Positions 5,664 to 52,694 of a DNA stretch of 64,000 bases are shown piece by piece. This DNA comes from a virus. Lineage: Duplodnaviria > Heunggongvirae > Uroviricota > Caudoviricetes. The translations under genes and the position numbers were made by a program. Numbering within the stretch: position 1 is the first letter of the stretch; each line of letters begins with the position of its first letter. The stretch covers positions 12,794-76,793 of IMG/VR virus record IMGVR_UViG_3300029850_000274; one strand, written 5' to 3'. Below the pieces are notes generated by a model. That model made no database searches. It was not told the origin of the DNA and was given only the letters and a program-made list of their open reading frames with translations.

Positions 5664-5684
5664 ATAGGTTATTTCCTCCTTTAA

Positions 5685-9904: not shown

Positions 9905-12900
9905 TTAAACTGGACGTTTGCGACCAACGATTTTAGCCATGTCACGAGTAACTTTTTGAGAAGTATATTTATAAGATTCATTAACGATTCTTTGAAGTTC
10001 TTCGTCAGATACTCCAGAAGGAACATTAATTGCACCAATAGCTTCGCCAAAATTGACATTGATTTCCGTTGTTCCAATTCCATCCATAGTCATTCCGTTC
10101 AGCATATGTCCATTTGCTAAGGCATTTAATACCTTGTCTTGTCTTACTTTATTTGCTAGATTAACAACATCGACAGTAGCAACTTCCTCACCTACTGCGA
10201 GAGAAGCAAGACCATCATCTCCGTTCTTATGTACAGATTTGACTAATCCACCTTTGGCATAACCTGTGACTTTGCTATCTGTTAGTCCAAGATCACTTGG
10301 TTTAACACCATAATGACCTAAGATAGTAGTAATCGTACTATCAATTTTTGCACCCTCTGAACTGATTGTTCCAGATAAAGAAGTAAACGTCTCTTCAATC
10401 TTATCGACAGAAGAAGATAACTCTTTACAGTATTTCTCATAATCATCATTCAGCTGTGTGCTTAATTTATCAAGTCCGTCAATCTGAAGATTATAAATAT
10501 GATCTTTTACCGTATCATCACGAGCATCTTTCTTTTCTTGAATTTCTGCATCCAAACGTGCTTTTTGAGCCTTAGCTTCTGCCGTATTGACTCCTTCCAA
10601 GGCTTTCCGCTTGCTTTCAAGAATTTGAATTTCTTTGTTTGAAGATTTTAACTGCTTGTCATATTCATAGTAGGATTTCTCTGTGGATAGGCTAGTTTTA
10701 TAAGCATCTATAGTTTTGTTAATCGCATCTAATTTCTGCTTTGCGTTATTTTTCAGAATAGTTGTTACACTATCTTCGGCAGACTTAATACTCTTAACTG
10801 CATCCGCAATATCTTGATCGCTCTTTTGAATTGCGTCAGCCCATTCTGTGTCAGAATATTCATCACGATGCTCAGCCATTTTGGCACGTTCTTGCATTAA
10901 TTGATTCAATTCTTCTTTTTCAGATTTGACATTAGCAATATTTGTTGCAATGGCAGCAGTACCATAATCTGTCAGATTTCCGTCATCATCAAACATCGCA
11001 TCTTCATCGATCAGAGAAGATATTGTTGTAAGTGAATTTTGTAAATTCTGAGCCGCTTTAATAGCACGTTCAAAACCACGATAATAAATATCGTCACGCA
11101 TACTATTTTTAAGTTCTTCGTTAGAAGTTCTTAAGTCATCTGCGCTACCTTTACAAGCGTTGATTTCGTTTTGCATTTGCATCCATTCTTGAGAACCATA
11201 TTTAATAGAACCATCGTTCAATTTGTTATTCAGGTTCTCTTGCATTTTTGCAGCTTCTTCATCAATGATCTGTGCTTGTCTCTCATTGGCATCAATCTGA
11301 TTCTGGTAGTCAGAACTATCAAGGTCTTGACCTTTTGATTGTTTCAACTTTGCGGCAGAAGAAGCATTGCTACTATTTGTAGCTTCCATATTTGCTTTCG
11401 CATCATAATACGCTTTAATATTAGCCTGAGATTGTACGGCAGCATTTGTCTGTTCAGCAGCCCAATCCGCAGCAGCATCATTCGCATTTTTATTTGCAGT
11501 TGCTAAAGCATTTGTAGCATCCGCTTCATTTTGTTTAGCCTGTGCTAATTTATTAGAAGCGTCTTTTGCTTTTTTGACTTGTGCATTATATGCTTTGAGC
11601 TGTTTTAATAAAGTCTTATCTTTAATTCCTTTTAAAGAAACCTCTTTTCCAGACTTAATTGCGTTTTTCTGAGAGTTAGATAATTTCTTAGCCCGTTTGG
11701 TCTTCAGAATACTACTACCCTTGGTCTTAACTGCACTATCAGCTTTATTCTTATTAGCTTGTGCATTTTCACGTTCTTTCTGATATTTAGCTTGGTTCTT
11801 ACTAGCTTCTCTTACAGCAGTCTGACTATTTTCGTACTGTTTCTTCTTATTTTTGACTTGATTGTCCAACACGTCATTCTGGTATGCGTAAGCAGGCTGA
11901 CCTGCATAATTGCTGGCGATTGCTTGTTCTTTAGTAACATTATCTAAATATACCTGTGCATCGTATAATGCACTATTGGCACTAGACAGATTTGCACTTG
12001 TCTTGGCAGCAGAAGATTTTGCAGATTTCGTACTCTTAACGGCTTTATTGTAAGCAGTAACTTTTTTCTTCGCAGACCCTTTGAGACCCTTAGTAGAAAT
12101 TGTCTTACCTGCTTTAATGCTTTTGTTAAGAGACGCTTTCTTTTTCTTAGATAATCCAGACTTATTGACCGCTTTTGTAGCAGATTTCGCCTTGGATTTC
12201 TGACTCTTTGTCGCTTTTGAAACCTTCTTTTGTGCTGTTTTATTAGCAGAAGAGGCACGACTCTGAGTAGATTTTGCAGAAGAAACATTAGATTGCGCTT
12301 CGGATAACTGATCGTTTGACGTTTGAACTAATCGTGCAACACCAGACTCTCCCGTAGATGCAGCAGAAGAACGATTAGATAATGTATCATAGGAGTTTTG
12401 TAGGTTTTCAATTGCTTTCTGTGCCTTTTCAGTAGGCATATTCAACCATTGATTGAATAAATCACGCTGAGTGTTCTTTAACTGTTGAGCAGCAGAATTA
12501 GCTTGAAGGTACTTCTCATATAAATTCTGATAGGACTCCACAGCAGAACGCATGTTATCATTCTTGATAGTATTGATATTCATACTACCGTTACGCACAC
12601 GTTCAAAGTATGTCCGTAATCGTTTCTGATTCTTCTTCTTAGAACTGTTCTTTGTCTTAGGAACTGTCTTAATTGCCTTACTTGCAAATGAACTTGCCTC
12701 AGATTTATATTTCTTAGCTGCTTGCTGATTTACAGAAATTTCTTTGCCAGTTGATTTATATTGATTCCAAAGTGCGCTTTGCTTAACCTCTGGTTTTACA
12801 TAATCATTGATCATATTAGCAAATTTTTCTGTAGCAGTTGCAGCTCGATCAATAGCGATTGCAATAAAGTCAAATTGTTTACCCATGTTGTCAAGCAATA

Positions 12901-15900
12901 TGGCAAATTTTGACTTTTTCTTTGTACTCTTATCTGTAGCTTTGCTGTCTTTCTTTTTAGAATCTGTGTTCTTTTTCGTTGCTTCCGTATTCTTTTTAGT
13001 GGATTCTGTATGCTTTTTGGTAGAGGAAGAACCAGATTTCTCAGCGATACCACCACGCCATCCACCAGAAGCTGTCGCAGACTGACCAGAAGAAAGAGCA
13101 GTACCATGTGCAAATGCTGACATGCCACCTTTAATAGAAGCACGACTATTTGTAGACCCTTTTGAAAGTAAATCTGCTGTCTGCTGATGATTAAAAACTA
13201 TATCTCCCCTACGTATATCAGTGAACTCCGCCCCATTATCTCCCGTAGTAAACCATTTATTACCACGGACGACTAATTCTGGCGCAACTTCCCCTGTTAA
13301 AGATAATCCAGAGAATTTAGCACCTAATGTTCCACTCGCTAATGCACGTCTATTATTTGTAATTCTTGGTATAGTACCATGAGCAAAAGCAGCAGTACCG
13401 TGGGCAACGCCACCACCTTTAGCAGGTTTGCCACTTTGGCTATAATTTACAGATACATTAACAGATTTATCATGTAAGCCATTGATCGCTGATTTTGCAG
13501 CTTCAACATCATGTAATCCACTTGTATTGATGGTAACTTTTGGAGTCGGATGCATCTTACCTAATGCATTCAACTTTCCTTTAATGCTACTGATTTTATG
13601 TGAAGCATTGTCTTTTACTTTGACGGTAATGTTCTTGTTTTTCAGTTTCTTTAAAGCACTAGCAATCTTCTTAATGACAGAAGAGGCGTTGCCTTTTGCT
13701 TTAATAGAAACGCTCTTAGATTTTAATTTCTTAAGAGATTTAGAAATAGAAGAAATTGTTTTCTTTGCATTTCCTTTAGCCTTAATAGAAATGCTTTTGG
13801 ATTTCATGCTAGATAAAGATTTTTTGATAGAGTCAATGGTCTTTTTAGCATTACCTTTAGCATTTACTTTAACATCTGACTTAGATGACTGCTTTTTACT
13901 AGCATTTTGACTAGCAGAAGCAGAAGACTTTGAACCACCAAATAATCCTTTTATGCCACCTGTAATGCTTGACCAAATGCCTTTTGCACCAGATGTAAAC
14001 TTGTCATATTTAGTGTTATCAGTCTGCCAATTCTGTGCTCCAGACTTAACCTGTGGTTTCTGATATGTAGTAGAATTCTGTTTTGTTTGAGCACTCTTAA
14101 ATACTCCATTTAAATTAGAAGGAATACTTTTAACAAAGTTAGTTAGAGATTGAACTTTCTTTGTCTGTTCGCCAGTATTTTCTTCAGATTTTTTCGTCGT
14201 ATTATTTTTGAACTCTTTTGTCTGGCGCTCTTTGAAGAAACTATTGATCTTGTCTAAAATGGAAGGAGATTTATTCTCTTTACCAGAAGTTTCTGTCTTG
14301 GTCTCTGTTTTAGGCTTCTCATTCTTAGAAGAAGTGCTGTCTTTCGATCCAGATTCAGACTTTTTACCCTTGGTATCAGACTCATTTTTCTTAGGTTTAG
14401 TATCTGGTAATTTACCGTCAGCCCAAGTAACCTTAATCTCATTGCCTTTATGTGCTTTGTTATAAGCGTCAATGATGGTTTTAACATCTTGGTTATCTTT
14501 ACTTGCAGTAACATTTCCGCTCTTATCGACTGTTGCGCCATTACGTTTTAACTCTTTTTGGACATCGTTCTTGTCTTTAAACTTCGTTTTAACGTAATAT
14601 TTATTGTCTGTTGCACCAGCAGTAATAAGATCCTGACGGGCTTGAACGGCTTTAAGATATGCTTCCATATCTTTCTTCGAACCAGTTTTATCTGCTTGCT
14701 GTAATGCGGCTTGAACTGCATTTTCTTTTTTCTCATACTCAGCTTCGTATTTTTGATTTAGTTCACGACCATTTTGACCTAACACAGAATCTTGAGCTTT
14801 TGTTGCCTTGTCTGTAGCAGAAGATCCTTCATCGAAAATTTTACTACGTTCTTTCTTTGCATCTTTGGATGTACCCCAGCTATCACCTCTGTCTTTGAGT
14901 TTTTGTTTATACTCATCAACAGAGTTCGTTAAAGCCGTTTCTGCTTCAGATGCATTAAGTTTTATGGTAAGTGTTTGCTCGAATCCTTCTGGTAGTTCTT
15001 TTTCATTTCTGCGCAAATCTTCAAGTTGTTGTTTGTATTTTTCGATTTCCTTACCTTGAGAATCTCCTAATGATCCACCATTTTTCTGCCAAGCCTGTGA
15101 CCATTCATTCAGTTTTTCACTAGCACTATCCCATTGCTCTGTAAGAGAATCAAACTGCACATCCCAACCGTATGTTTTAAGATTATTCAAGATGGATTCA
15201 AATGGAGTGATACCCATTCCCATCTTTTTAGCCGCCTTACCAACATTGTCAATTTTAACTTTATAATCGCCAGTTTTTGCATTGAGTTTAGCCATAGCTT
15301 CACCAGAAGCATTTGTCATGTTCTGTAACTGACTTACAAACGCTTTAGGACCTGAATCGTCAGAAGTAAAATACTTCATGATATGATCATAGTTTTCTTT
15401 GAAATTCTTATCATCCGTCTTTCCAGTAGGAGAGATAAGACCTGCCATTTGCTTAAATTGGTCGGTTCCAACTTTACCTTTATCCCATTCGTCTTTGGCG
15501 CTCTTTAATCCAGACACAAAAGTATTGTAATTTGCATCATCGTCAGCAGATTTTGTAGCTTGAGTATACGTGTCAAGAGTATAAGATAATCCACTATCTT
15601 TGTATTTCGCAACATTATCAAGACGCTGTTTTAGCTGTTCAAGAGAACCTGTAAAGATTTCATTCTTATCGGTAATTAAGTCATAGGCTTCAGACAACTG
15701 ATCGAGGCTAAGGTTTTCAAAATATCCTTTACCGAATATTTTGTCAAAGTCAACAGAAGAATTAAGCTGTTTACCTAATTTCTCATATTTACCGCCTTGT
15801 TCGGTCATATAATCTTTAATCTTTCGTAAAGATTCTGCTTCTTTATCATAGCCCTTTTCATTATTTTCATGAAAACTTTCGGTCTTTTTATTGGCTTCAT

Positions 15901-18298
15901 CTACGGAGTCAGCAACACCTTCAATGACGTTTTTAACTTTCTGTCCACCAATTTCCAATCCTTTGGAATCAAGTTTTAACAACTCATCTTTGCTTGTAGC
16001 TTTAGAAGTAATTTTGGAAATATACTCCTGCATCGTTTTATCATCAAGCTTTTTACCAGTGCTTGACAATACAGGTGTGTACATAATTTCCTTTCCTTCA
16101 AACATACTACCGTCAGCACCAGCCATAGAAGAAGAGATTAATGTACTATAAGATTTCTTTTTATCATTATTTAACAATACAGGTCTTCCATTGAGGTCTA
16201 CATTACCGACTTTGGATGAACCTTTGGATAATCTGTCATTTCTGGCAGACTGATATTGAGAAATTAATTTCGTAAATTCTTTCTGATCTTGAAGATTAGC
16301 TACCGTCTTTTGGTCTTTAGTTTTCTGACCTTTAAACTCATCGTTAAGAGTCTTGATCATTTTTTGAACATTTTGTCCGTTAGATGTTAATACATCGCTT
16401 CCAGACATAGACACGCCAAGCATACCAGACAACTCTTTAGTAGAAGCTCCTGTCTTTTTCTTAAGAGTCTCAAATTGTTTATTGATTTGCTTTTGCCATT
16501 CACTAGCAGTTAAAGACGTATCACCTTTGATATCAGAGAATTTTTCATAAGCATCTTTTAAAGAACTATCAGTTGCCAGTTTGCTTGTAAAACTACGAAC
16601 TTTCTGTTCTTGTTCCTCAAGATATTTTGTTGCACCTTTACCAGACATCTTATCAGAACTTAGATCCATATTACTTACATAATTTTTGGCAAATTGCTGT
16701 GATGTCTTGTCTAATGTTGCAAATCCTTGAGATGCCTCAAGCGTATTTTCCAGAGTAGTAGATTTAAATTCTTTAAGTTGATCCTGAACTTCTTTCAGAT
16801 TACTCTTTGTGGCTTCAACATATTTGCTCATAGTGTTGTCTTTAACACCGAGTCCACCACTATCGAAGTTTGCGTTATTTAATAATGTAGATAACTGTTG
16901 GTCTGTTAAGTTGTCAAGATCTGCATTTTTACCAAGAATACTCTTTGCTTCTTTCTTATAAGCCTTTGTGTTCTTGATCATACTAATGAGATTAGATTTG
17001 TTAGAATTTAATCCATCACTTTGAATGGATTTCTTGCTTGCAAAGATACTATGCAATGCGCCTGCGTCCTTTGTGCCGAGTAAACCAGTACCAATACCAT
17101 TCGCTATTGATTGTAAACCAAATCCTAACCCTGCACCAGCGGCAGTACCAATACCAGGTGCGATAAGTGTACCAATTGCAGCTCCAATCGCAGCTCCACC
17201 TATACCGTATACAGATTTACCACCAGTCAGCAGTCGTCCGACGTTACCTGTTAGACTTCTGTCACCAACTTGATAACCTTCAGTGGTTTTATTCATATTT
17301 AAAGCAGCGGCTTTGTTCTGGATGGCTAAATTCTTCTTACTAGCGATCGCCTGTTTATTTTTCTGGATTTGACGTTCATATTTCTTAATAGATTTGTCAA
17401 TTGCAGAATTATTATCAATGATAGCATTTCCTTCACTATCCATTGATTTAACAAGGTCTTTGTTAGTCTTAACAAGCTGTTTCTTTAATTCAAGATAACG
17501 ACTATAGTCAGATGTAGAAAGACCTACGTTTTGATTTGTAGTATTATCGACACCTTTGGCGAGTCTGTTGAACTCTGCCTTGATGTCATTTACAGAGTCG
17601 AGTTTAGACTGACTCTTATTGATTTTCTTGTTGTATTTGTTGAGATTCTTTGTGCCTGCGTTTAATGCTCTGCTACGAATATTGTTAGCTAATGCATTGA
17701 CACCAGCGGCAGCAGCAGTACCAGCAGCAAGTAATACGGCAGGGAGATTAGCAACCATAGTTTCTTTTAATCCAGTGCCTATATTACTAAGTGATGTCTT
17801 TAATTCTCCAAGCTTGGCTTTTGTTTTTGTTATACCATTTGAGAATTTGGTATGAACTTTTTCAACCCCACCTCCAACATGCGTCTTAAACTTGCTCGCA
17901 AAACTTGTTGTTGATTTTTCTGCTTTTTCAAGATTAGCATTGTTATTAAATCGTTTCATTGCTTCAGTAGCAGAGTCAGCAGAATTATTTATTGATTCAA
18001 AAGAAGCAGAGATATCGTGTTTCCGTAATGCTTCAGATACTTCGTTTCCTTTATTTTCAAAGGATGATTCTGGCTGATTAACAGCCAAAGTCATTGCATC
18101 GTTAATCACTGCTGAATTTAATTTGGATTTTTGCATTTTGTCGATTTGTTCATCAATTGACAATCCATCTTTATTTTTTGCAATTTCCGTAACCAATCCG
18201 CTAAACAGATCATTTTTCATATTCCTTTGATCTGAAGATAAATTATTTAAATCCTTAATATCTTTAATGGTACTACCTATTTTTTCAAATGACAAAAG
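9905..18298 (-). CDS. Tape measure protein, exon 4 (2797 codons)
   Basis: Very long helical Lys/Ala/Ser-rich frame with AHGT and GYAKGG..GEEV motifs, upstream of Dit; ATG at 18313 has no RBS; joins exon 3 in frame after terminal G at 18299. Confidence 0.85.
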   Translation of the reverse strand, partial: LLSFEKIGSTIKDIKDLNNLSSDQRNMKNDLFSGLVTEIAKNKDGLSIDEQIDKMQKSKLNSAVINDAMTLAVNQPESSFENKGNEVSEALRKHDISASFESINNSADSATEAMKRFNNNANLEKAEKSTTSFASKFKTHVGGGVEKVHTKFSNGITKTKAKLGELKTSLSNIGTGLKETMVANLPAVLLAAGTAAAAGVNALANNIRSRALNAGTKNLNKYNKKINKSQSKLDSVNDIKAEFNRLAKGVDNTTNQNVGLSTSDYSRYLELKKQLVKTNKDLVKSMDSEGNAIIDNNSAIDKSIKKYERQIQKNKQAIASKKNLAIQNKAAALNMNKTTEGYQVGDRSLTGNVGRLLTGGKSVYGIGGAAIGAAIGTLIAPGIGTAAGAGLGFGLQSIANGIGTGLLGTKDAGALHSIFASKKSIQSDGLNSNKSNLISMIKNTKAYKKEAKSILGKNADLDNLTDQQLSTLLNNANFDSGGLGVKDNTMSKYVEATKSNLKEVQDQLKEFKSTTLENTLEASQGFATLDKTSQQFAKNYVSNMDLSSDKMSGKGATKYLEEQEQKVRSFTSKLATDSSLKDAYEKFSDIKGDTSLTASEWQKQINKQFETLKKKTGASTKELSGMLGVSMSGSDVLTSNGQNVQKMIKTLNDEFKGQKTKDQKTVANLQDQKEFTKLISQYQSARNDRLSKGSSKVGNVDLNGRPVLLNNDKKKSYSTLISSSMAGADGSMFEGKEIMYTPVLSSTGKKLDDKTMQEYISKITSKATSKDELLKLDSKGLEIGGQKVKNVIEGVADSVDEANKKTESFHENNEKGYDKEAESLRKIKDYMTEQGGKYEKLGKQLNSSVDFDKIFGKGYFENLSLDQLSEAYDLITDKNEIFTGSLEQLKQRLDNVAKYKDSGLSYTLDTYTQATKSADDDANYNTFVSGLKSAKDEWDKGKVGTDQFKQMAGLISPTGKTDDKNFKENYDHIMKYFTSDDSGPKAFVSQLQNMTNASGEAMAKLNAKTGDYKVKIDNVGKAAKKMGMGITPFESILNNLKTYGWDVQFDSLTEQWDSASEKLNEWSQAWQKNGGSLGDSQGKEIEKYKQQLEDLRRNEKELPEGFEQTLTIKLNASEAETALTNSVDEYKQKLKDRGDSWGTSKDAKKERSKIFDEGSSATDKATKAQDSVLGQNGRELNQKYEAEYEKKENAVQAALQQADKTGSKKDMEAYLKAVQARQDLITAGATDNKYYVKTKFKDKNDVQKELKRNGATVDKSGNVTASKDNQDVKTIIDAYNKAHKGNEIKVTWADGKLPDTKPKKNESDTKGKKSESGSKDSTSSKNEKPKTETKTETSGKENKSPSILDKINSFFKERQTKEFKNNTTKKSEENTGEQTKKVQSLTNFVKSIPSNLNGVFKSAQTKQNSTTYQKPQVKSGAQNWQTDNTKYDKFTSGAKGIWSSITGGIKGLFGGSKSSASASQNASKKQSSKSDVKVNAKGNAKKTIDSIKKSLSSMKSKSISIKAKGNAKKTISSISKSLKKLKSKSVSIKAKGNASSVIKKIASALKKLKNKNITVKVKDNASHKISSIKGKLNALGKMHPTPKVTINTSGLHDVEAAKSAINGLHDKSVNVSVNYSQSGKPAKGGGVAHGTAAFAHGTIPRITNNRRALASGTLGAKFSGLSLTGEVAPELVVRGNKWFTTGDNGAEFTDIRRGDIVFNHQQTADLLSKGSTNSRASIKGGMSAFAHGTALSSGQSATASGGWRGGIAEKSGSSSTKKHTESTKKNTEATKKNTDSKKKDSKATDKSTKKKSKFAILLDNMGKQFDFIAIAIDRAATATEKFANMINDYVKPEVKQSALWNQYKSTGKEISVNQQAAKKYKSEASSFASKAIKTVPKTKNSSKKKNQKRLRTYFERVRNGSMNINTIKNDNMRSAVESYQNLYEKYLQANSAAQQLKNTQRDLFNQWLNMPTEKAQKAIENLQNSYDTLSNRSSAASTGESGVARLVQTSNDQLSEAQSNVSSAKSTQSRASSANKTAQKKVSKATKSQKSKAKSATKAVNKSGLSKKKKASLNKSIKAGKTISTKGLKGSAKKKVTAYNKAVKSTKSAKSSAAKTSANLSSANSALYDAQVYLDNVTKEQAIASNYAGQPAYAYQNDVLDNQVKNKKKQYENSQTAVREASKNQAKYQKERENAQANKNKADSAVKTKGSSILKTKRAKKLSNSQKNAIKSGKEVSLKGIKDKTLLKQLKAYNAQVKKAKDASNKLAQAKQNEADATNALATANKNANDAAADWAAEQTNAAVQSQANIKAYYDAKANMEATNSSNASSAAKLKQSKGQDLDSSDYQNQIDANERQAQIIDEEAAKMQENLNNKLNDGSIKYGSQEWMQMQNEINACKGSADDLRTSNEELKNSMRDDIYYRGFERAIKAAQNLQNSLTTISSLIDEDAMFDDDGNLTDYGTAAIATNIANVKSEKEELNQLMQERAKMAEHRDEYSDTEWADAIQKSDQDIADAVKSIKSAEDSVTTILKNNAKQKLDAINKTIDAYKTSLSTEKSYYEYDKQLKSSNKEIQILESKRKALEGVNTAEAKAQKARLDAEIQEKKDARDDTVKDHIYNLQIDGLDKLSTQLNDDYEKYCKELSSSVDKIEETFTSLSGTISSEGAKIDSTITTILGHYGVKPSDLGLTDSKVTGYAKGGLVKSVHKNGDDGLASLAVGEEVATVDVVNLANKVRQDKVLNALANGHMLNGMTMDGIGTTEINVNFGEAIGAINVPSGVSDEELQRIVNESYKYTSQKVTRDMAKIVGRKRPV

Positions 18299-18325
18299 CG
18301 TTAGGCATGGCATTTTATATATAAG

Positions 18326-18354
18326 TTGCGTTCATATATATAAAATGGTACAAT
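18326..18354 (+). promoter_or_regulatory. SigmaA-type promoter for antisense cargo genes
   Basis: TTGCGT-17 bp-TACAAT with extended TG; GGAGG RBS before ATG 18391. Confidence 0.6.
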
Positions 18355-18390
18355 TAAAAATATAAATAAGTTAATGCGGAGGTAATAAAA

Positions 18391-19212
18391 ATGTCGTTAA
18401 TTAAATGTCCCGAATGTGGACAAGATGTATCAGACAAAGCCGAAAATTGTATTCATTGCGGATATCCTATTAAACAATATCTCGAATCTAACAAAATCCA
18501 AAATTTAAAAGAAAATCAAGTATGTAATATCAATCATAATCTCGTTGATTTCTCTGACATCACACCATATCTTAAAGAATCTTGTGATACTGACATAATG
18601 ATTAAAATTCTGTTAAAACTTAGAGATATGGAACAACGAATCGGATTGCTAGATGAACTTGAGCTGACAAAATATATTATGACGCAACATGTTATTCCTA
18701 AAGAATATGCGGCAGACACTTACGATCAGTTTCTTGAAAAACTAGCAAATAAATTACAAAATAATACTCATTGTTTAATTCATAAAACAACCACATATGA
18801 CTTATCTCCTGTAAAAGAATATCTCAAAACACATAGCGGATGTAACTTTAAACTTATGGGAATGATCAAGAAAATTCCAGAGTTAACAAAAAGAGATGCT
18901 ACATATTTAATAGATTTTATTAATAAAAATCATATTATTCCAATATGTTATCCAGAAAAATATGATGATGTTGTTATAGAAGAATATGTTAAAGAGATTG
19001 ATCAATATTGGATACAAAAACATAATCCATGTCAAGCGATAGAACCTCAAATTCAGATGTTAACCAACAAACCTTCATGCCCTAACTGCGGATCAACAAA
19101 TATCAAAAAGATAACTGCTAGTTCTCGCATTGTTAGCGGCTTAGTGCTAGGAATATTGAGTTCAAACATTGGTAAAACATATCAATGTAATAAATGCAAA
19201 TATAAATGGTAG
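18391..19212 (+). CDS. Zinc-ribbon domain protein (intron cargo)
   Basis: N-terminal CPECG..CIHCG and C-terminal CPNCGS..CNKC motifs; strong RBS. Confidence 0.8.
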   Translation: MSLIKCPECGQDVSDKAENCIHCGYPIKQYLESNKIQNLKENQVCNINHNLVDFSDITPYLKESCDTDIMIKILLKLRDMEQRIGLLDELELTKYIMTQHVIPKEYAADTYDQFLEKLANKLQNNTHCLIHKTTTYDLSPVKEYLKTHSGCNFKLMGMIKKIPELTKRDATYLIDFINKNHIIPICYPEKYDDVVIEEYVKEIDQYWIQKHNPCQAIEPQIQMLTNKPSCPNCGSTNIKKITASSRIVSGLVLGILSSNIGKTYQCNKCKYKW

Positions 19213-19222
19213 GAGTACGCAA

Positions 19223-19759
19223 ATGAATTTAAACAAAGGACATGTCTTGATTGCTGTTCTATCAATTTGTTTATCATTTAGTGTTGGAACTAATATCAAA
19301 ACTAGCGAAGAACATAAAAAAATAAGGTCAAAATACGAAGATGTAAAAGGTTCTTATGATGATATTTATTCACGTTATTATGATCTTTCCAAAGAGAATG
19401 ATAAAATACAAGAAGATTTGAATCGTTCTAGTGGAGAATATAATGATCTATGGTATAAATATACGTCACTAATTGACAAATACGATAAGTTAAAAGCAAA
19501 ATATAAAAAGGTAGCAAAACCGAAAAAATCTACATCAAAGAAATCATCTAGCTCAAACAATACCAGTTCATCATCAAATAATTCGTCTTCTTCAGATTCC
19601 GATAATTCTTCATCCGCAAGTTATACAGTTTACATAACAGATTATGGACAAAAGTATCATGCGGCTGGTTGTAGATATCTTAAAAAGAGTTCGATATCAA
19701 TCTCTAAATCTGAAGCAGAACAACGTGGATACACAGCTTGTTCGCACTGCCACCCGTAG
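19223..19759 (+). CDS. Membrane-anchored/exported coiled-coil protein with C-terminal Ada-like metal-binding domain (intron cargo)
   Basis: ATG 19223 after AGGAG; hydrophobic N-terminus, coiled coil, Ser-rich linker, VYIT..GQKYH..C..GYTACSHC. Confidence 0.7.
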   Translation: MNLNKGHVLIAVLSICLSFSVGTNIKTSEEHKKIRSKYEDVKGSYDDIYSRYYDLSKENDKIQEDLNRSSGEYNDLWYKYTSLIDKYDKLKAKYKKVAKPKKSTSKKSSSSNNTSSSSNNSSSSDSDNSSSASYTVYITDYGQKYHAAGCRYLKKSSISISKSEAEQRGYTACSHCHP

Positions 19760-19820
19760 TGCAAGAAATACATATTAATGTAACAAATGTGGATATAAGT
19801 GGTAAGAAGAGAAGCATAAC

Positions 19821-19851
19821 AATAAGAGAGGACATTCGATCCTCTCTTATT
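19821..19851. terminator. Hairpin between convergent cargo genes, probable bidirectional terminator
   Basis: AATAAGAGAGGA...TCCTCTCTTATT. Confidence 0.65.
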
Positions 19852-20548
19852 AAGATGTGATCTTATCAATTGAAGTAGAAGAAATTTCATCAGAAGAATT
19901 TATATTATCCGCAAGATTGCTTAAATTATTTTCTTCTGGCTCACTATTGAATATTTCAATCATATCAACATCACTATATCGAATAACAATTTTGGCATAA
20001 GGATTTCCATCATATGAAATAAATGCATCCTCATCGTTTCCAATCTTGTATTGAGAATATGCTCTCAGAACAATCTGTTGATCATTGTTAATTCTTTCTC
20101 CAAGATAATCCATATCTCCAATAATGTAAAAATCTTTTTCTTTTAATGTAATCTTACATTTACTCCCACCTTTAAAGTCAATTACGTCATAAAAGATGTC
20201 GTCATTTAATGTCATATTAAAATATTGTTCCATAAACTCCGTAAATGATTGTTTTGTAATCAAATATAAAACCACAAATCCTAGCACGAGTGCTAAACAA
20301 ATCGACAAAATTGAATTTGCATATATTTGGTTAATACTCTGTAGTAAGCTTAATTTTACTCGAATTAGTGTTGAAATGCATAAAAGCACATAGCTAATTA
20401 CACACCCAGATACATTCAAAGCCCATGTCGATAATTTCTTTGAAAATCCAGTCTTAACTATGTAAATAAATATGATGCCAGGTACATAATATTGTAGTAA
20501 ATTTGGAATATTGTTTATAATTTCTGTTAATTCTTTAATTTTTATCAC
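19850..20548 (-). CDS. Three-TM membrane protein, DUF6338-like (intron cargo)
   Basis: YYVPGIIF first helix, three hydrophobic segments, soluble C-terminal domain; GTGA overlap with upstream peptide. Confidence 0.6.
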   Translation of the reverse strand: MIKIKELTEIINNIPNLLQYYVPGIIFIYIVKTGFSKKLSTWALNVSGCVISYVLLCISTLIRVKLSLLQSINQIYANSILSICLALVLGFVVLYLITKQSFTEFMEQYFNMTLNDDIFYDVIDFKGGSKCKITLKEKDFYIIGDMDYLGERINNDQQIVLRAYSQYKIGNDEDAFISYDGNPYAKIVIRYSDVDMIEIFNSEPEENNLSNLADNINSSDEISSTSIDKITS

Positions 20549-20700
20549 TTCCCTTGATCGTTATTTTTATTCTGTTGTTTAAATTTGTTTCCTTTTTGAA
20601 TATATTTAATAGAGGTGTTGGAAGTTCCTGTAATTACTTTACTATTAAATTCAAAAATTTTTGCTTCTTGCTGTTTCTTGTTCCCTTTGTTTTCTGCCAT
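20545..20700 (-). CDS. 51-aa basic peptide coupled to the membrane protein (not in ORF track)
   Basis: AAAGGAG RBS, MAENKGNKKQQEAKIFEFN...DQGK*, TATAAT box at 20744-20749. Confidence 0.6.
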   Translation of the reverse strand: MAENKGNKKQQEAKIFEFNSKVITGTSNTSIKYIQKGNKFKQQNKNNDQGK

Positions 20701-20783
20701 AATTATACTCTCCTTTGTATATATAAATTAATAGTTATAATTTATTATACAGCAAATTTCTAAATTAATAAAGAGTATAACAA

Positions 20784-20813
20784 AAGAGAGGTAACCGTTG
20801 AGTTATCTCTCTT
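20784..20813 (-). terminator. Intrinsic terminator-like hairpin
   Basis: AAGAGAGATAAC..GTTACCTCTCTT followed by TTGTT on minus strand. Confidence 0.55.
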
Positions 20814-20854
20814 GATTCTATTTACGCAATAAATCAGCTTATTACAACAAATTA

Positions 20855-21032
20855 TTGACAAAATAATATCTCTGTATTAATATGAAAATACCCCATATAA
20901 CTTATTTATCGTCAAGTTATAAGGTTAAGTTTACAAGAAATGCAACGAGTTATCTTCCAAGTTCGTCATTGCATTTCCAAAGGATCTACAGTCTATTAGT
21001 TGCCGTAAGTGGTTTCTGATAGACTGTTTTTT
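20855..21032 (+). ncRNA. Candidate small RNA A with promoter and terminator
   Basis: TTGACA-17-TAATAT; three consecutive hairpins, the last followed by a T-run; no ORF with RBS seen. Confidence 0.55.
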
Positions 21033-21075
21033 GTTATGAATATTTATTTTTTATGACATTGCATAAAATTACATA

Positions 21076-21197
21076 TTGACATTTCAAGATTCCAATGATA
21101 CTCTGATAATAAAGAAAGGTGTTACTGATAACGGTTCACCTGATAATTTATACGTTTAATAATAACCGCTTACTTACCAGGTCAGGCGGTTATTTTT
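21076..21197 (+). ncRNA. Candidate small RNA B with promoter and terminator
   Basis: TTGACA-17-TACTCT with extended TG; AGGTG/CACCT hairpin; AATAACCGC/GCGGTTATT stem plus T-run. Confidence 0.5.
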
Positions 21198-21201
21198 CTG
21201 C

Positions 21202-21358
21202 AATAAAAAAGAAGTTATTTGGTAGGCGTCGCCTCTCCTACATCTCTTTTAACCCATAGGGTGCATGGTTGCAACGAATTTTACCACCTCAAATAACTTC
21301 TTGATTATATATTCAATTTATGTATATTTATCATATCAAAAACTTGCCAAAATGTCAA
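21202..21358 (-). ncRNA. Candidate small RNA C with promoter and terminator
   Basis: TTGACA-17-TATGAT with extended TG; 13-bp closing stem AAGAAGTTATTTG/CAAATAACTTCTT around internal hairpins, then T-run. Confidence 0.55.
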
Positions 21359-21900
21359 TCTTCAAAAAACCTTATAAAATAAGGACTTTTTGATGGTCAT
21401 TTTTTACATAAAATTTGAATTTGAATTCCCTGCTTAGAGATGAAATATCTCTGTACGCAAACGATGATAGCAGGTAAACATCGACATTAATTTACACTTT
21501 TGGGCTATACATTACCAGACAATGATCATAAGGTCGTCATTATCTGTCAGGATCGGTAGTCTCTGAACATCCATTCTTATTGAAACATCTTAGCTACTGT
21601 GCCTTATCCCGAAGCACGTTTCTTATGCGGTAGTTTACCGATATCTTCCTATACGGTAAGAATGTGTGTGGCTGATTAGATACAATCGTATAATACGATA
21701 TGAATATCAAATTCTTAAACTATTCCGTCTATTGTTGCCAATTCCGTTTCAGTTTTGATATCCTTTTTCGTTCCAGCAATTACTCCTGATACGTGTATTT
21801 TAAAACCCCGTATCCTATATATTTGTCCAAAACACCATTTCTGTTTCTTCCTTATATATAGTAGGCTCACTGTCACCCTAATGATTTTGAGATAGGGTCA

Positions 21901-22378
21901 ACCTAGGTTTTTAAAAAGTTTAATGCCAGCAAAGCCAGCGGCAGCAGTTTGCAATAATCCAAAACTACTTACTAATTTATTAACCACATTAAGAACATTT
22001 GATAGTAAAGTAATTCCTCCACCAAGAAGGTTTTTATCAGCAAATGTTGTTGAGATAGATTGGAATGAGTTTTTAAGATCTTCTGTTCGTCCTTCCAAAC
22101 TATTCTCATAAACTTTGTACTTTTTGTCTGTAGATCCAGCAGAATTTTCGGATACTTTCTCGTATTCTTGAGCTTTACCGTAATTATTTAATAATACAAG
22201 TACCTCTTCCATGTGGTTTGTGCCAGCGAGAGCTTTGGCAATCGCACGTTTTGATACATCACTGTAGTTAGTCCATTTACCAGCGACTTCATCGAGCACA
22301 TCACCGAAATTTCTAAATGTATCTTGTTTGTCTCTCAGGCTAATTCCTTCACCTTTTAAGACAGTTTCTACATCACTC
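21901..22378 (-). CDS. Tape measure protein, exon 3
   Basis: 478 nt: (L)SDVETVLKGEGISLRD...FGDVLDEVAGKW...FKNLG, continuing the TP901-type TMP core domain. Confidence 0.85.
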
Positions 22379-22720
22379 CAAGCTGTTACTTTGTCCTGTA
22401 GAATGAGACAATATGACTTCTATATAATAAGAAGAAACTCATTACATAGAAGCGGTTGCGGTACTTCCAAAAGTGTCTTTACACTTGACCGCAACTCCAC
22501 TTCTTAAGGAATTATGGGAAATATAGAAGTGTGTTCAGACTGTCGCATAGTCATCGAAATGACCTTCTTTCGCTCAGTCGTTCAAGGCGGATATAGATAT
22601 ATCCTTCCTCCTTATTGACCGTTCCCTCGGCTTCCAAGCACATATGAATATTATTCATATGATCATAAGAAAGAATTGCCACAGTGGTTTATGTATTATG
22701 CCACTGCGCCCCAAATGTCT
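22379..22720 (-). ncRNA. Group I intron 2 (342 nt, no ORF)
   Basis: 5' site after U (GACCU), P1 with U.G pair; R GAACGACUG, S AUGCGACAGUCUG; ends AAAGUAACAGCUUG; P10 CAUUU/GAGUG; CU+G gives an in-frame Leu codon. Confidence 0.9.
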
Positions 22721-22878
22721 AGGTCTTCGCCATTATTTTGATAATCTTTAAGTCGTGCTAGTTTGATATTTCCCATACGGGAGAAAATGGCGTTCAAACC
22801 AGTTCCGACTGAACTCATACCTTCCTGAGTTGTTTCACCGATAGTTGCTAAATAACCGAGCAATTTGTCCATGCTGAC
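22721..22878 (-). CDS. Tape measure protein, exon 2
   Basis: 158 nt: VSMDKLLGYLATIGETTQEGMSSVGTGLNAIFSRM...NNGED. Confidence 0.88.
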
Positions 22879-24464
22879 CAAGCTGTTACTTTCACGTTTG
22901 CTCTACGCTACAGACCACATCAAAGGTACAATGTGGCGGAGGCGGTTCTTCTTAAAGTAGTCTGTTTACTACTGACCGCCTCTCTACATATTTCTATATA
23001 GTTCAGACTGTATATTTGTCTCATAGAGACAGCTACCCGAACAGTCGTTACAATACTGATAAATTTTCATCATATTTAATTTCATAGTTCTTCAAAATAA
23101 ATAAATCATTATCAATATCAAAAACAACCCAGTTATTATCTGTATTTGATAATAGCTGAGTTGCTAATTGCTTAATATGTAATAATTTTTCATCATCTGG
23201 AAGTTTCTTTCCTTTATGTACAATCTTAAACATTTTTAAACCAGAAGATTTTAATGTTTTATATCGAATAATTTCTTTTCTGTCAAATTCTTCTTGTGTT
23301 AAGTGTCCCAAAATCACATTTAGATTATGACCAGATCCATCATATTCACAATAAATATTGTTCTCTAATAAAATATCCAGAAAATAATATTTAGTTGGAA
23401 AATTTAAGATTCCATGATATAAATTGCATAAATGAATTTGATTTTTACTTGCAGGAATGTCGTCTATATTGTGAGAAGAAACAAAAGTTGTTCTAATTTT
23501 ATTTTTTATGCTTTCTGACTTTGATGCAGGATAAACACCATATAGTTCAATAGATGTCTGCCTTGTCTTTTTTAATGCACTTTCCATATGTTTTTTAGAT
23601 TGCATAATATTTTCAACTCCATATTTATCTAATACGGTTTGAATTTGCTTTTGTTTAATCTTTTCATTTTGCAGTGGATGAAGAACTCCATATTTTTGTA
23701 TATTTGTATTTTTAATTTTTTGTTTAACCTTTTCTGATTGCAGTGGAGTTTTCACCCCATATCTCATTAAACAAGTATTTTCTGTTTTATTTCGTATTTG
23801 TTCTGATTTTTGAGGGTTATCAACGCCATATTTTTCTATACAACTTTCTCTGATTTTTTGCTTAATTTCTGAATTTTGAAATACATTATTAACGCCATAT
23901 TTCTTTTTTACAGTTTTAATTTGATTTTGCTGTACTTCTTTATTTTGCATAACATTTTCAACACCGTATTTCTTAAGACAAGTTTCCTTATATCGTTCTT
24001 TGCCTTCTTGCGTCCCCATATAAGAAGAGGTGCCATATTTAAGAATATTTCCTTCTTTTGCTTTTAAAGAAGCACAAGATTTACATGCATGTTTATTTAC
24101 TAGCCCACGATTTAAGTCCTGTCTTTGAGCATAAAAATGTTTTCCACAATAATCACATTTTACTTCAACTTTTTGCATACTACCTTTCGGGATGTCTAAT
24201 TGTGAGACAAGAATTTTTGTTCTATACCCACATTTATATCCTAAATTTTGATAGTATTTTATGGCTTTTCCACATGTCATTATTTCAATTTGTTTATCAA
24301 TAATCATAACTATCACCGTCTTTCTTTATAGTTATGAAATTTATCAGTTATCTCGGTCTTGTCTTTTAGGCTACGATAGCCCATTCAGGTTTTAACCGAT
24401 TTGGGTAATAACTACTATTTGTAAAAATAGCCCATATGTCGCCATATGGTCGGGCATCTACTTT
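22879..24464 (-). mobile_element. Group I intron 1 (1586 nt) with endonuclease ORF in the P6 loop
   Basis: P1 CGGGU/GCCCG with U.G; stem ACUGAUAAAUUUCAU/AUGAAAAUUUAUCAGU brackets the ORF; R GUAACGACUG, S AAUAUACAGUCUG; ends AAAGUAACAGCUUG; junction NLAG|VSMD in frame. Confidence 0.9.
23048..24316 (-). CDS. Intron-encoded putative homing endonuclease (Zn finger, KYGV repeats, Vsr/PD-(D/E)xK-like C-terminus)
   Basis: CDYC..CKSC; about eight (K/R)YGV-type repeats; FLDI..IYCEYDGSGH. Confidence 0.7.
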   Translation of the reverse strand: MIVMIIDKQIEIMTCGKAIKYYQNLGYKCGYRTKILVSQLDIPKGSMQKVEVKCDYCGKHFYAQRQDLNRGLVNKHACKSCASLKAKEGNILKYGTSSYMGTQEGKERYKETCLKKYGVENVMQNKEVQQNQIKTVKKKYGVNNVFQNSEIKQKIRESCIEKYGVDNPQKSEQIRNKTENTCLMRYGVKTPLQSEKVKQKIKNTNIQKYGVLHPLQNEKIKQKQIQTVLDKYGVENIMQSKKHMESALKKTRQTSIELYGVYPASKSESIKNKIRTTFVSSHNIDDIPASKNQIHLCNLYHGILNFPTKYYFLDILLENNIYCEYDGSGHNLNVILGHLTQEEFDRKEIIRYKTLKSSGLKMFKIVHKGKKLPDDEKLLHIKQLATQLLSNTDNNWVVFDIDNDLFILKNYEIKYDENLSVL

Positions 24465-26366
24465 ACCCGCTAAATTTGCATTCGTCGCAACTTCGGACAT
24501 ACCTTCTGCCAAACCACCAACATCAGTAGCAGAAGCCATATCTACAGAAGACATTTTATCTACGATTTTCAAGGTATCTTCTGCACTCGTAATGCCATAA
24601 CCCTTTCTCGCAGAAGTTAAATATTTTGTAGCATTTTCAGATGTTAAATCACCAACCTTGCTCAGTTTAATAGAATTTTCAGCAAGTTTATTAGACTTTT
24701 CAACACTTTGTCCCTGTTTCATCCACTCAGTAGAAGAAGCAGCAACATCTGTACCAGTAGCCTTTAATTGATGCCCCATATTTGAATATGTTTTCATCAA
24801 ATCTTTGGCTTTGTCATTTGATACACCAGTAGCCATCTGAAGCTGAGTCATGGCACTATCTACATCGTATGTATTTTGCACCATTTCTTGTGCTTTGTTC
24901 ATACCAGATTGCAAGATGCCATATGTTCCTACGAACTGAGAAATCTGACTAAATCCACGCTTAACTTCTGAAAACATTGAATTTCCAGTCAATCCCCTTG
25001 CAGAAATTTCAGACTGTATTTTCTTAAAGTCTTGATTTGCTCCTTGTAATTCACCTTTGGTTGTTGCAGACTCAGACTTCTTTGCAATATCTTCTAAGAC
25101 ATCGCCGTAATCCTTTGCAGCTTTTGTATTGTTCTCTAAATAAGTTCTGATCTTATTTGCTTGGATACTACCTTCACCAGGATTAAGTGCTTTTGTTTGA
25201 GTTGAATTGAGAATCTTCATCTCATTATTTAGTTTTTCATATGATTGAATTACTTTCTCATTCTGCTGAATGATTGCATCTTGATTTGCAGTAGTTGGTT
25301 TTGCCTGATACTGAGTATGTAACTTTTGTAAATCTTGTACATTCTTTTCATATTCCTTAAAAGATTTACTTGCATTTTTATATTCTTGAGTACCTGCGTA
25401 ATAGCTATTTAATTTATTCTGCTGTGCGGCTAAATTAGCATCATACGATTTATTTCCAAGATTCCTAGAAACATTTTCTACGTAAGAGTCTTTTTTCTCT
25501 TGTTCCTTGAGTGCTTGATTAAACCAGTTACTATATTGTTTTTCTTGTTCTTTGTGTTGTTTTTCAACTTGTTTTTGAACATCGCTCTGAAGAACTTTAT
25601 TAGGAGAAGCATTTAATAAAGATAAACTACTTGCGGTGTTTTTATCATATTGTTCAAGTTTGGCGTGTGCCTCAATTAACAGATCACGATTCTCAGCGCT
25701 TCGATTCTTCTGAAAGTTGCCATACATTCTGTTTAGTTCTTTTCGCTGTTTATCGTAATCAATGACGTTCATTCCAAACTCATTGTATTCTTTGCTGTTA
25801 TTGTCAACATACCCAGAAAATTGTTTTTGATATTTGCTTGATTTTGATGCAAATTTCTTGGCTTGAATGTCGGATTCAATTTTGGCAGCTTTTTCGTTTA
25901 AAGCTTTTTGCTTTGCTTGAAATTTAGCGTTGTTTTTCTCTTGTTCCTTGAGTGCTTGATCCTGCGCTTTTTCTTGTATTTTTGAAACATTTTTTGCATA
26001 TTTTTTAGCGTCTTTATCTGAAATACCTTCATTTTTTGCAATGTCAGTAATTACAGATGCCATTTCCTCGGCTTGTTTCTTCTGACGACTGATAAGCCCC
26101 TTATCAATATTAGTTTCACCACTAGAATAAAACGTCCCAGAAGCATGTTTCATCTGTTTTTGAATTGCAGATTTACTATATTGTACATATGATTTTGCCT
26201 GAGCATTTGCCTGTCTTTTAATTTGGTTATTAAGTGTTGTATTTGTTGATCCGCTTGTCCCGACAGTAGGATTAATATGAACATCCCTGTCTTTTACAAG
26301 ATCAGCCAATTGAGATTCAACATCACCTTTATTAAGTATTGCTTTAATGACGGCTTGAAAATCCAT
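24465..26366 (-). CDS. Tape measure protein, exon 1 (634 codons)
   Basis: GAGGTG RBS; coiled coil, then TP901-type core (VDSAMTQLQMATG...EWMKQG...ATDVGGLAEGM); last 32 aa of the track ORF are intron read-through. Confidence 0.88.
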
Positions 26367-26447: not shown

Positions 26448-26518
26448 CAGACGGTCAGGGAATCGAACCCCGATCTCTGGTTTTGGAGACCAGTATAATT
26501 CCATTATACCAACCGTCC
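26448..26518 (-). tRNA. tRNA-Trp (CCA)
   Basis: GGACGGT/ACCGTCT acceptor, CTCCAAA loop, TTCGATT T-loop. Confidence 0.85.
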
Positions 26519-50996: not shown

Positions 50997-51069
50997 AGCT
51001 GCCGATCAGACTTGAACTGATAACCTGTCGCTTACAAGGCGACTGCTCTACCAATTGAGCTACGACAGC
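50997..51069 (-). tRNA. tRNA-Thr (TGT)
   Basis: GCTGTCG/CGGCAGC, loop CTTGTAA, TTCAAGT. Confidence 0.92.
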
Positions 51070-51165
51070 AGAAAGGAGTAGTGGATGAATTAATATCCAC
51101 CCACTAGGTGCTAACAATGAAAAAATCTTTGTTAAAAAAGAACTGACCACCAAACAGCTCTTTGA

Positions 51166-51241
51166 TTGCACAGGTAGGCTTCGAACCTACGCCTCACGAA
51201 CCAAATGGAGCGAGCGAATTAACCAACTTTTCCACTGCGCA
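51166..51241 (-). tRNA. tRNA-like RNA with 12-nt anticodon loop
   Basis: TGCGCAG/CTGTGCA acceptor, GTAGG-TTCGAAG-CCTAC T arm, CTCGC/GTGAG around TCCATTTGGTTC. Confidence 0.55.
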
Positions 51242-51315
51242 ATAATGGTAGGGACATAAATGTCCTTACCTGATAGGAGATAGTTATGTCAATAACCAAA
51301 ATGAAACCTAGAAAA

Positions 51316-51391
51316 TAGCAGAAGGTGGATTTGAACCACCGATCTTCAGGGCATGAACCTGACGAGATAGACCAAACTTCTCCATTCTGCG
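51316..51391 (-). tRNA. Initiator-type tRNA-Met (CAT)
   Basis: C1:U72 mismatch, TCAGG/CCTGA stem, loop TTCATGC. Confidence 0.85.
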
Positions 51392-51392
51392 A

Positions 51393-51467
51393 CAGGGATA
51401 ACTGGATTTGAACCAGTGAAAATACGGCAGTCAAAGTGCCGTGCCTTAACCACTTGGCGATATCCCT
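51393..51467 (-). tRNA. tRNA-Gln (TTG)
   Basis: AGGGATA/TATCCCT, loop CTTTGAC. Confidence 0.9.
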
Positions 51468-51484
51468 ATAAGTATTTTAATTTA

Positions 51485-52050: not shown

Positions 52051-52063
52051 ATTAAAAATACAA

Positions 52064-52147
52064 TTCCTACAGCTGGATTCGAACCAGCGACTTTCATCTA
52101 ATGTTATCCTTGCTGTGATGATCCTCTACCAACTGAGGTATGTAGGA
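52064..52147 (-). tRNA. tRNA-like RNA with 18-nt anticodon loop
   Basis: Perfect acceptor, D and T arms; TCATC/GATGA stem closes ACAGCAAGGATAACATTA. Confidence 0.7.
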
Positions 52148-52150
52148 AAA

Positions 52151-52562: not shown

Positions 52563-52603
52563 TATTAGCCCACAAGCCCGAAGGACATTGTAGGACAACC
52601 TAA

Positions 52604-52689: not shown

Positions 52690-52694
52690 AAAAG

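Follow-up and report, generated by a model that had tools for sequence, protein, structure and literature searches.

The interrupted tape measure gene

We analyzed a stretch of 64,000 nucleotides (nt; hereafter the window), positions 12,794 to 76,793 of the 164,482-bp virus record IMGVR_UViG_3300029850_000274, from an uncultured phage of ~164 kb. In it the gene for the tape measure protein (TMP), on the minus strand, is interrupted by a group I-like RNA core and several unrelated genes. A preliminary description of this DNA had placed a 3.6-kb group I intron with accessory genes at this site. A query with the protein encoded just upstream of the interruption (exon 3) retrieved 50 viral contigs (85-98% identical protein), giving 51 sequences with the window; both ends of the interruption were present in 38 of them, the other 13 fetched loci stopping too early. 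Near-identical DNA was absent from the phage collection, whose closest records were unannotated uncultured phages with 51% identity in one structural protein, and a prophage search (one genome per species) found no relatives in bacterial genomes.

Four open reading frame (ORF) pieces of the minus strand matched the TMP profile phrog_4211 in colinear order. They and the exons and introns around them are listed here in window coordinates, with protein lengths in amino acids (aa).

24366-26366 (-): TMP piece 1, phrog_4211 positions 222-746
24464-22879 (-): intron 1, with a 422-aa homing endonuclease ORF (DUF7487/phrog_12131)
22696-22881 (-): TMP piece 2, phrog_4211 positions 747-784
22720-22379 (-): intron 2, without an ORF
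21901-22380 (-): ORF of TMP piece 3, phrog_4211 positions 789-939, E 9e-32
21901-22378 (-): TMP exon 3, 478 nt, start set by intron-less 846-aa relatives (e.g., P0021)
9905-18313 (-): 2802-aa ORF, TMP piece 4, phrog_4211 positions 968-1735, weak, E 1.4e-4
9905-18292 (-): predicted TMP exon 4, 2,795 codons and a stop, first bases UCAUU (Ser-Phe)

Pieces 1 to 3 are encoded as one uninterrupted 846-aa protein in many related records. Introns 1 and 2 are optional, being missing from the many records that encode it, and the existence of these intron-less proteins fixes their borders. Exon 3 ends in AACCTAGGT at 21901 (-), with the codons AAC CTA GGT at 21909-21901, just as the preliminary description had read them, and a TGA directly after; the same end was found in 51/51 sequences, the other 50 all sharing the junction and the start of the core. 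As also described there, no continuation of the TMP frame is found close to the core, and the next TMP-like ORF is the 2802-aa ORF (9905-18313), in frame 3.6 kb away. This ORF was also correctly said to lack a ribosome-binding site: its Shine-Dalgarno (SD) match is 0 nt, whereas 6-nt matches occur at four of seven other gene starts checked (the TMP start and three other genes). The ATG at 18313 is found in only 2 of 17 junction contexts, and the sole universal in-frame start is a TTG within the CUUUUG that precedes exon 4, with an SD match in 0/17 contexts. Exon 4 is without a conserved start codon or ribosome-binding site.

Two TMPs of 1,684 and 1,690 aa are continuous through the site, and the gene is likewise uninterrupted there in the related locus L233. 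The comparison with intron-less homologues, which the preliminary description had offered as a possible refutation, did not refute it: residues 361-516 of the 1,690-aa protein (P0062; E 2e-38) align with exon 3 right up to the final exon residue, and the similarity of exon 4 is not significant. Three further homologues (P0056, P0059, and P0060; 45-58% identical to exon 3) stop or turn non-TMP-like at FKN[LV][GD]. A tblastn search of phages with the first 400 aa of exon 4 and a search of viral contigs with P0060 gave no match. If spliced, exons 1-3 (846 aa) and exon 4 (2,795 aa) would be joined in frame as ...FKNLG|SFEK... into a predicted TMP of 3,641 aa, a protein that would be made only if splicing bridges the intervening island.

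The group I-like core and the 3' splice site

The preliminary description had recognized a group I core directly after exon 3, and its P1 with the U.G pair, P3, P4, P6, P7, and P8 were indeed readable. The elements of the core and of the predicted 3' end are given below, all on the minus strand, with intron positions (nt) counted from 21900; core conservation refers to an alignment of 44 distinct sequences (556-nt block).

21356-21900 (-): group I-like core, nt 1-545; in-frame UGA at nt 1-3
P1 (-): UAGGU / GCCUA (nt 35-39), U.G at the splice site in 44/44 sequences
P1 extension hairpin (-): nt 3-8/21-26
21862-21871 (-): internal guide AGUGA|GCCUA (AGUGAGCCUA), nt 30-39, invariant in 44/44
P element, 5' strand of P4 (-): AAUUGCUGGAA, nt 120-130
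Q element (-): AAUCAGC, nt 224-230
P6 (-): CAUUCUUA/UAAGAAUG, nt 237-244/322-329
R element with the 5' strand of P7 (-): GUUCAGAGACUAC, nt 333-345
S element (-): GUAUAGCCC, nt 391-399, 3' strand of P7 at 394-399
P7 (-): G338-C399, bulged A339, G340-C398, A341.C397, C342-G396, U343-A395, A344-U394
P3 (-): two exclusive candidates, nt 112-117/349-354 or 86-93/345-351
P8 (-): 10 bp, nt 355-364/376-385
21497-21501 (-): J7/9, AAAAG, nt 400-404, directly 3' of P7, invariant in 44/44; predicted partner of CUUUU (P9.0)
P9 (-): nt 406-427; P9.1-like element, nt 428-473
21363-21391 (-): A/U-rich hairpin and U run closing the conserved 5' block; P9.2-like or a weak terminator
18293-18298 (-): predicted intron 3' end CUUUUG, with CUUUU as P9.0 strand and G18293 as omega-G

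The P, Q, R, and S elements were assigned by eye against what we take to be the consensus elements of the classical literature. The exon strand of P1 is formed by the last five nt of exon 3, UAGGU (21905-21901), and an A-to-G variant of exon 3 (4/44) retains the P1 pair as G.U. P7 has the layout of the G-binding site with one A.C mismatch; this mismatch, already entered as a caveat in the preliminary description, is present and invariant in 44/44. Among the two P3 candidates, 112-117/349-354 suits the consensus position of the P element, and 86-93/345-351 is preferred by RNAalifold. The stem of the hairpin at 21363-21391 is weakened in 5/44 sequences, and the terminator scan does not call this hairpin.

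The core is strongly conserved, with a mean column identity of 98% in the alignment. Mean identity to the window was highest in the core (97.6%), ahead of the final 320 nt of exon 3 (93.3%) and the opening 300 nt of exon 4 (66%). We assembled by hand a structure of 133 pairs in which P3 and P7 form a pseudoknot. In it 99.2% of alignment cells were paired, compared with 34-40% in slid controls (partner moved by 1-3 columns), and 22 pairs vary, all 22 of which still pair. Two-sided changes within the family number zero and the core helices P3-P8 never vary, so there is no covariation there; a shuffle control on pair changes (500/500) was uninformative. Since these sequences had themselves contributed in part to the structure, this conservation of pairing is supportive rather than decisive. 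A linked two-base change was also observed at 21827-21829 (-), nt 72-74, where UUUUGGAC and UUUCGAAC alternate (28 versus 16 of 44); the first base turns a G.U pair of the hand model into G-C, and the second lies in a loop.

Group I models, a check that the preliminary description had asked for, gave no support. Rfam Intron_gpI (RF00028) had no match at its gathering threshold (50 bits), whether the window or the full 164-kb genome was scanned, and none in 6.7 kb at E<=10; with the 576-nt core as sole target it reached 10.3 bits against the cut-off of 50 (E=7), with the alignment partly misplaced. Rfam group I matches were equally absent from three diverged relatives (L218, L232, and L238). 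Of 15 unrelated viral loci with the same R...S pattern, 10 are RF00028 matches at E<=1e-5. What defeats the model here is probably the ~245 nt of extensions separating P3 from P7. The core thus falls outside group I by the curated model and inside it by anatomy. It lacks the P7.1/P7.2 feature of subgroup IA2, for which there is no room since P3' starts 0-4 nt after the 5' strand of P7 (nt 344). Judged from these features, the core is confidently predicted to be a real group I-type ribozyme.

The 3' end of the predicted intron was placed where omega-G, P9.0, and P10 coincide, at G18293. The motif CTTTTG|TCAYT is invariant in 35/35 sequences (two were dropped for having too little exon 4) although exon 4 is only 66% identical, and it occurs once in the 64-kb window versus 0.23 times expected. 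CUUUU is complementary to AAAAG (nt 400-404), where P9.0 would form. Within the guide, GCCUA is complementary to the exon 3 terminus (P1) and AGUGA (nt 30-34) to UCAYU, the first five nt of exon 4 (P10). A guide scan gave contiguous 5+5 pairing at 18293; introns 1 and 2, with independently known borders, served as positive controls and both scored 8/10. Such 5+5 pairing arises at 119 of the 12,238 positions after a G in the window (~1%). The preliminary description had instead let the intron end with G18299 (NLG|LLSFEK), where the scan gave 5+0. We rejected this base as the last of the intron, as it is G in 4/38 and A in 34/38 sequences, and for this reason shifted the site by 6 nt to G18293 (NLG|SFEK). 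The P10 proposed with it (UGACAG/UUGUCA) does not adjoin P1 and makes 0 contiguous pairs at the guide. With the new border the predicted intron spans 21900-18293 (3,608 nt). Across the 38 sequences with both ends, the core-side to 3' site distance is 3,499-5,995 nt to G18293 and 3,493-5,989 nt to the former site, and the first residue of exon 4 is Ser in 8/8 aligned lineages, L218 included.

A second lineage offers an independent view of the site. In L218, L220, and L236 (47% identical TMP) the gene breaks at FFKNLD|, followed by different sequence and 3.4 kb of cargo (L218 9582-13015), and it resumes in L218 at ...GAAAAG|UCACUU, encoding SLKSVGS. A candidate guide, AGUGG|GUCUA, pairs 5+5 with UGGAU|UCACU. 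Relative to the window, position -2 of P1 is changed on both sides, a compensated change from G-C to A-U. Parts of a candidate core, resembling P3, P7, and P8, can be made out in L218, with an atypical P4 and without an evident P9.0. The cargo here includes a 627-aa metallophosphoesterase matching the PADLOC effector PDLC00736 and, adjoining the resumption point, an antisense zinc-ribbon gene homologous to the one described below. In the more distant L232 (40%) the break falls at FKNVG| and is followed by 6.8 kb of cargo, including MazF and an ANT/Bro antirepressor (9744 to about 16600); no guide was found there by eye. Read from sequence, the L218 lineage splits the TMP gene where the window does; its intron sequence differs, and its candidate guide matches the exon ends.

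The cargo island and its surroundings

Between the core and the 3' site lies an island with a constant layout of core, slot 1, small RNA (sRNA) block, slot 2, zinc-ribbon gene, and CUUUUG. Its features in the window are as follows.

21358-21330 (-): slot 1 promoter-like site TTGACA-17-TATGAT, 11/12 matches, with TG
21214-21297 (-): skipping-rope RNA (RF02924, 64.5 bits versus a cut-off of 36.7), in 4/11 relatives scanned
20829-21044 (+): second conserved block, sRNA gene antisense to TMP, RNA of about 145 nt
20855-20883 (+): sRNA promoter TTGACA-17-TAATAT, invariant
sRNA terminator (+): stem ends at 21027, T run to 21032; three hairpins
19850-20700 (-): sense cargo operon, 51-aa and 232-aa ORFs
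20700-20545 (-): 51-aa ORF, good SD
20548-19850 (-): 232-aa predicted membrane protein, family in 21/37 distinct introns
19852-19820 (-): terminator-like hairpin from the terminator scan, 14 pairs
19169-19759 (+): 196-aa ORF, likely start at ATG 19223 giving 178 aa
18391-19212 (+): 273-aa double zinc-ribbon protein, Pfam zinc-ribbon matches
18326-18354 (+): zinc-ribbon promoter-like site, TTGCGT (18326-18331), 17 nt, TGgTACAAT (-10 at 18349-18354)

The core is fixed in 51/51 sequences and the cargo differs: among the 38 two-ended sequences there are 37 different introns, 3.5-6.0 kb long, each a mosaic drawn from about 12 recurring gene families, with 4-8 unrelated genes on both strands. In the window there are four ORFs, of 51 and 232 aa in sense and of 196 and 273 aa in antisense. 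The preliminary description had found no nuclease or transposase motifs in these four genes, and domain searches agree. Nuclease, recombinase, and transposase domains were also absent from 16 representatives of the cargo families, apart from sub-cut-off matches of zinc ribbons to Zn_ribbon_IS1595. The cargo therefore carries no endonuclease and the intron, present in 51/51, shows no presence/absence polymorphism such as would be seen in a homing intron; nor is there a TnpA/TnpB element of the IS200/IS605 type at the 3' end, as in an IStron. What was found resembles a moron or accessory island, with cassettes of defence-type and regulatory genes that vary among close relatives. Besides the 197-aa antisense protein family (26/37 distinct introns), other families include Bro-N, Rha, DUF3800, DUF2513, MazF/PemK, SocA/Panacea, and ToxN/AbiQ (E 5.7e-47). 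In L001 (9007-9684), three perfect 33-nt tandem repeats stand directly upstream of ToxN/AbiQ, making up a type III toxin-antitoxin module.

Two parts of the island are constant. The sRNA block at 20829-21044 is common to all 36 other distinct introns (88-97% identity) and so, with the window, to 37/37; its promoter and hairpins are conserved in an alignment of 25 distinct sequences, and no Rfam family matches this RNA. The zinc-ribbon gene is antisense and adjoins the 3' splice site in 37/37 distinct introns, with a homologue in L218 (E 1e-12). Its 273-aa product has N- and C-terminal zinc ribbons, the last cysteine pairs being separated by a hydrophobic stretch, some relatives carry two copies, and its look-alikes are mostly viral zinc-ribbon proteins. 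The sequence ACGCAA, kept in 38/38 two-ended sequences 27-33 nt upstream of the splice site, is explained by the TTGCGT -35 box of the zinc-ribbon promoter; a pairing of this sequence with UUGCGU in the internal loop of P9.1 was dropped on that account. The conserved pieces (core, sRNA block, and zinc-ribbon gene) could act as natural anchors for cassette exchange by homologous recombination.

Of the three sRNAs with promoters that had been proposed earlier, at least two were recovered, the skipping-rope RNA and the plus-strand RNA, both with near-consensus promoters; the third was not identified. Further sense-strand terminator-like hairpins were seen by eye at about 21390, 21215, 21190, and 20810. 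Promoter and terminator matches rest on consensus only, with 23 found versus 26 expected. The view of the intron as a neutral landing site for moron-like cargo holds as far as the cargo is concerned (37 arrangements in 38 sequences, about 12 families), but "neutral" is not supported, since these sense-strand hairpins would face a pre-mRNA spliced in cis.

Several observations concern the surroundings of the island. Introns 1 and 2 are each preceded by U and end in ...AACAGCUUG before an exon G; they have ...ACAGUCUGAAC... in common, and neither is called by Rfam. In 15 of the 50 relatives (L034-L048, about 4650-6000) the match at the fetched site was confined to residues 54-160 of exon 3; for the four checked (L034, L036, L045, and L047) the missing first part was located 0.3-1.3 kb upstream. 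This pattern indicates a putative fourth, optional TMP insertion at ...ALAG|TNHME... in those relatives; L238 and L239 break at the same place (AFAG|). One tRNA is found at 26448-26518, just upstream of the TMP start, and a ROOL RNA (303 bits) at 51469-52067 (-) lies within a cluster of seven tRNA genes at 50997-52786 (-).

Expression of the split gene and comparison with known systems

We favour, with moderate confidence, a reading in which the core splices U21901 to U18292 in cis within a read-through late transcript, removing 3,608 nt; both splicing and its mode, cis or trans, are what we infer from sequence. A guanosine would attack after U21901, held by P1, and ribosomes would stop at the UGA of intron nt 1-3. 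Once the polymerase had passed the cargo, CUUUU would dock on J7/9, G18293 would enter the G-binding site (G340-C398), and UCAUU would pair with AGUGA (P10), after which exon ligation would yield the mRNA for the 3,641-aa TMP. Any insert would be tolerated between the P9 hairpins and P9.0, and this stretch may therefore have become the cassette site. TMP is needed in few copies per virion, so a low splicing yield may suffice. Several findings weigh against this reading. The core scores 10.3 bits with RF00028, below the cut-off of 50, and gives nothing at gathering; no two-sided pair change occurs within the family, in a structure partly taken from the same sequences; the invariant A.C of P7 adjoins the G-binding pair; and P3 has two mutually exclusive candidate pairings. 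Exon 4 and the intron-less TMP P0062 are not significantly similar (hhalign probability 8.7%). A pre-mRNA spliced in cis must also read through sense-strand terminator-like hairpins, two convergent antisense genes, and an antisense sRNA. Moreover, the 3' site would be made 3.6-6 kb after the core, which would require either that the 5-bp P1 retain the cleaved exon meanwhile or that the first step be delayed.

These costs lend some weight to trans-splicing, which we regard as quite unlikely. Here a transcript of exons 1-3 and the core would end at the post-core hairpin and be joined to an exon 4 transcript starting within or after the cargo, the halves meeting through P9.0, omega-G, and P10. 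The conserved 5' block does close with an A/U hairpin and U run, the promoter- and terminator-like sites and antisense genes of the cargo would make a continuous transcript costly, and the support from P1, P10, and P9.0 fits equally. In known split group I introns the halves are reunited by a helix that forms between them. Here the contact would amount to only about 10 bp (P9.0 and P10), and RNAduplex energies for the core with the final 130 intron nt lay within shuffled controls in 7/7 lineages. The hairpin is weak, and degraded in 5/44 sequences. There is no conserved sense promoter upstream of the 3' site, where an antisense promoter fills the space; sense candidates just upstream of exon 4 were rejected, as they differ per lineage and lie too close to the site. 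Regulated splicing, whereby transcription of cargo or antisense units (the zinc-ribbon gene and the plus-strand sRNA) would gate access to the 3' site and hence TMP, seems very unlikely. Both genes are antisense and in fixed positions (37/37 each), but the idea is purely inferential and their conservation is equally explained by recombination anchors or useful genes. A broader formulation is that an essential structural gene is permanently split by a ribozyme-bridged island, TMP depending on, and perhaps being gated by, transcription of that island or trans-splicing; this we consider unlikely.

A reading without splicing across the island is in our judgement quite improbable. It posits two proteins, one of 846 aa and another of about 2,796 aa started from the TTG of CTTTTG on a leaderless or SD-less mRNA, and treats the group I-like RNA as a relic, a transcript end, or a recombination anchor. 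In its favour, gene callers label the 846-aa product a complete TP901-family TMP in many records, the invariant TTG is in frame, the core is not called by Rfam, and terminators lie behind the core and in the cargo. A relic, however, would not be the best-conserved DNA of the region, nor would it keep all 22 variable pairs paired, and a second lineage again has a guide complementary to both exon ends, with a compensatory change. None of the six P9.0/omega-G bases ever varies, unlike the base that precedes CTTTTG, the SD is missing in 17/17 contexts while the TMP start and other genes have one, and intron-less homologues are continuous through the site.

If splicing is true, the intron would serve as chassis for an island of 3-5 kb that holds multiple genes, on both strands, and is fixed in a clade of ~160-kb uncultured gut phages. 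Ribozymes could then turn the inside of an essential gene into a safe harbour for cassettes of defence and toxin-antitoxin genes, the known size and kind of cargo of bacterial group I introns would grow, and the question would arise of how a 3' site is found 3.6-6 kb, and many terminators, past the core. If trans-splicing is true, it would be the first natural group I case in a virus or bacterium. Tail-length predictions and annotations for these phages would also be wrong, as gene callers split the TMP into proteins of 846 and ~2,800 aa; the 846-aa database proteins labelled as complete TP901-family TMPs correspond to the first three exons only. Tail length follows a rule of thumb of ~1.5 Angstrom per TMP residue, by which a 3,641-aa TMP would correspond to a tail of roughly 0.5 micrometre.

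Parts of this architecture have counterparts elsewhere. In the T4 nrdD (sunY) intron the core lies 5' of the ORF and a far 3' site is chosen by P9.0 and P10, but that intron is about 1 kb long, with one homing endonuclease ORF and no independent transcription units. In organellar split group I introns the exons are likewise separated by long gene-bearing stretches; these introns are split inside a helix that re-forms, and no such complementarity was seen here. Morons (HK97/lambda) and the P2/P4 hotspots are self-contained variable cassettes with their own signals. The island resembles morons in its toxin-antitoxin, abortive-infection, and regulator genes and in its own promoter- and terminator-like signals. 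Known morons, however, sit between genes, whereas this island lies within an essential structural gene and would be harmless only through splicing.

Among introns of the same class, the available parts of the published accounts describe TMP genes of Bacillus cereus group prophages with group I introns at three sites (TMP-IVS1/2/3), different introns occupying one site with identical P1/P10 (PMC2504315). The present gene is similar in having several group I introns at distinct sites of one TMP gene and in its P1/P10 logic, and some of the B. cereus introns are without a complete homing endonuclease gene. Those introns belong to IA1/IA2 and are described, in the part of that report at hand, with or without endonuclease genes only (PMC2504315); unlike them, the predicted third intron here is 3.5-6.0 kb long, fixed in 51/51 sequences, without P7.1/P7.2, and loaded with 4-8 unrelated genes. 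Phage introns in capsid and tail genes splice during late expression, according to the portion of a further account (PMC3706429). As far as the available text of two reports extends, bacterial and phage group I introns are either empty or furnished with a homing endonuclease gene or, in the case of IStrons, with an insertion sequence (IS) (PMC3984707, PMC4227781), and our literature search, outside of which most subscription journals lay, found no description of multi-gene, non-mobile group I intron cargo. IStrons (CdISt1, BcISt1) come nearest in architecture, with a 5' core, an insert downstream of the P9 subdomains, and the 3' site beyond. The same partial texts describe them as carrying the IS downstream of P9.2 at the 3' end and still splicing, at 482-2582 nt, and as IA2 introns with IS200/IS605 elements whose transposase genes are on the forward strand and which transpose to many sites (PMC4227781, PMC3984707). 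Unlike IStrons so described, the present intron has no transposase that we found, reaches 3.5-6.0 kb, holds genes on both strands, and occupies one fixed site.

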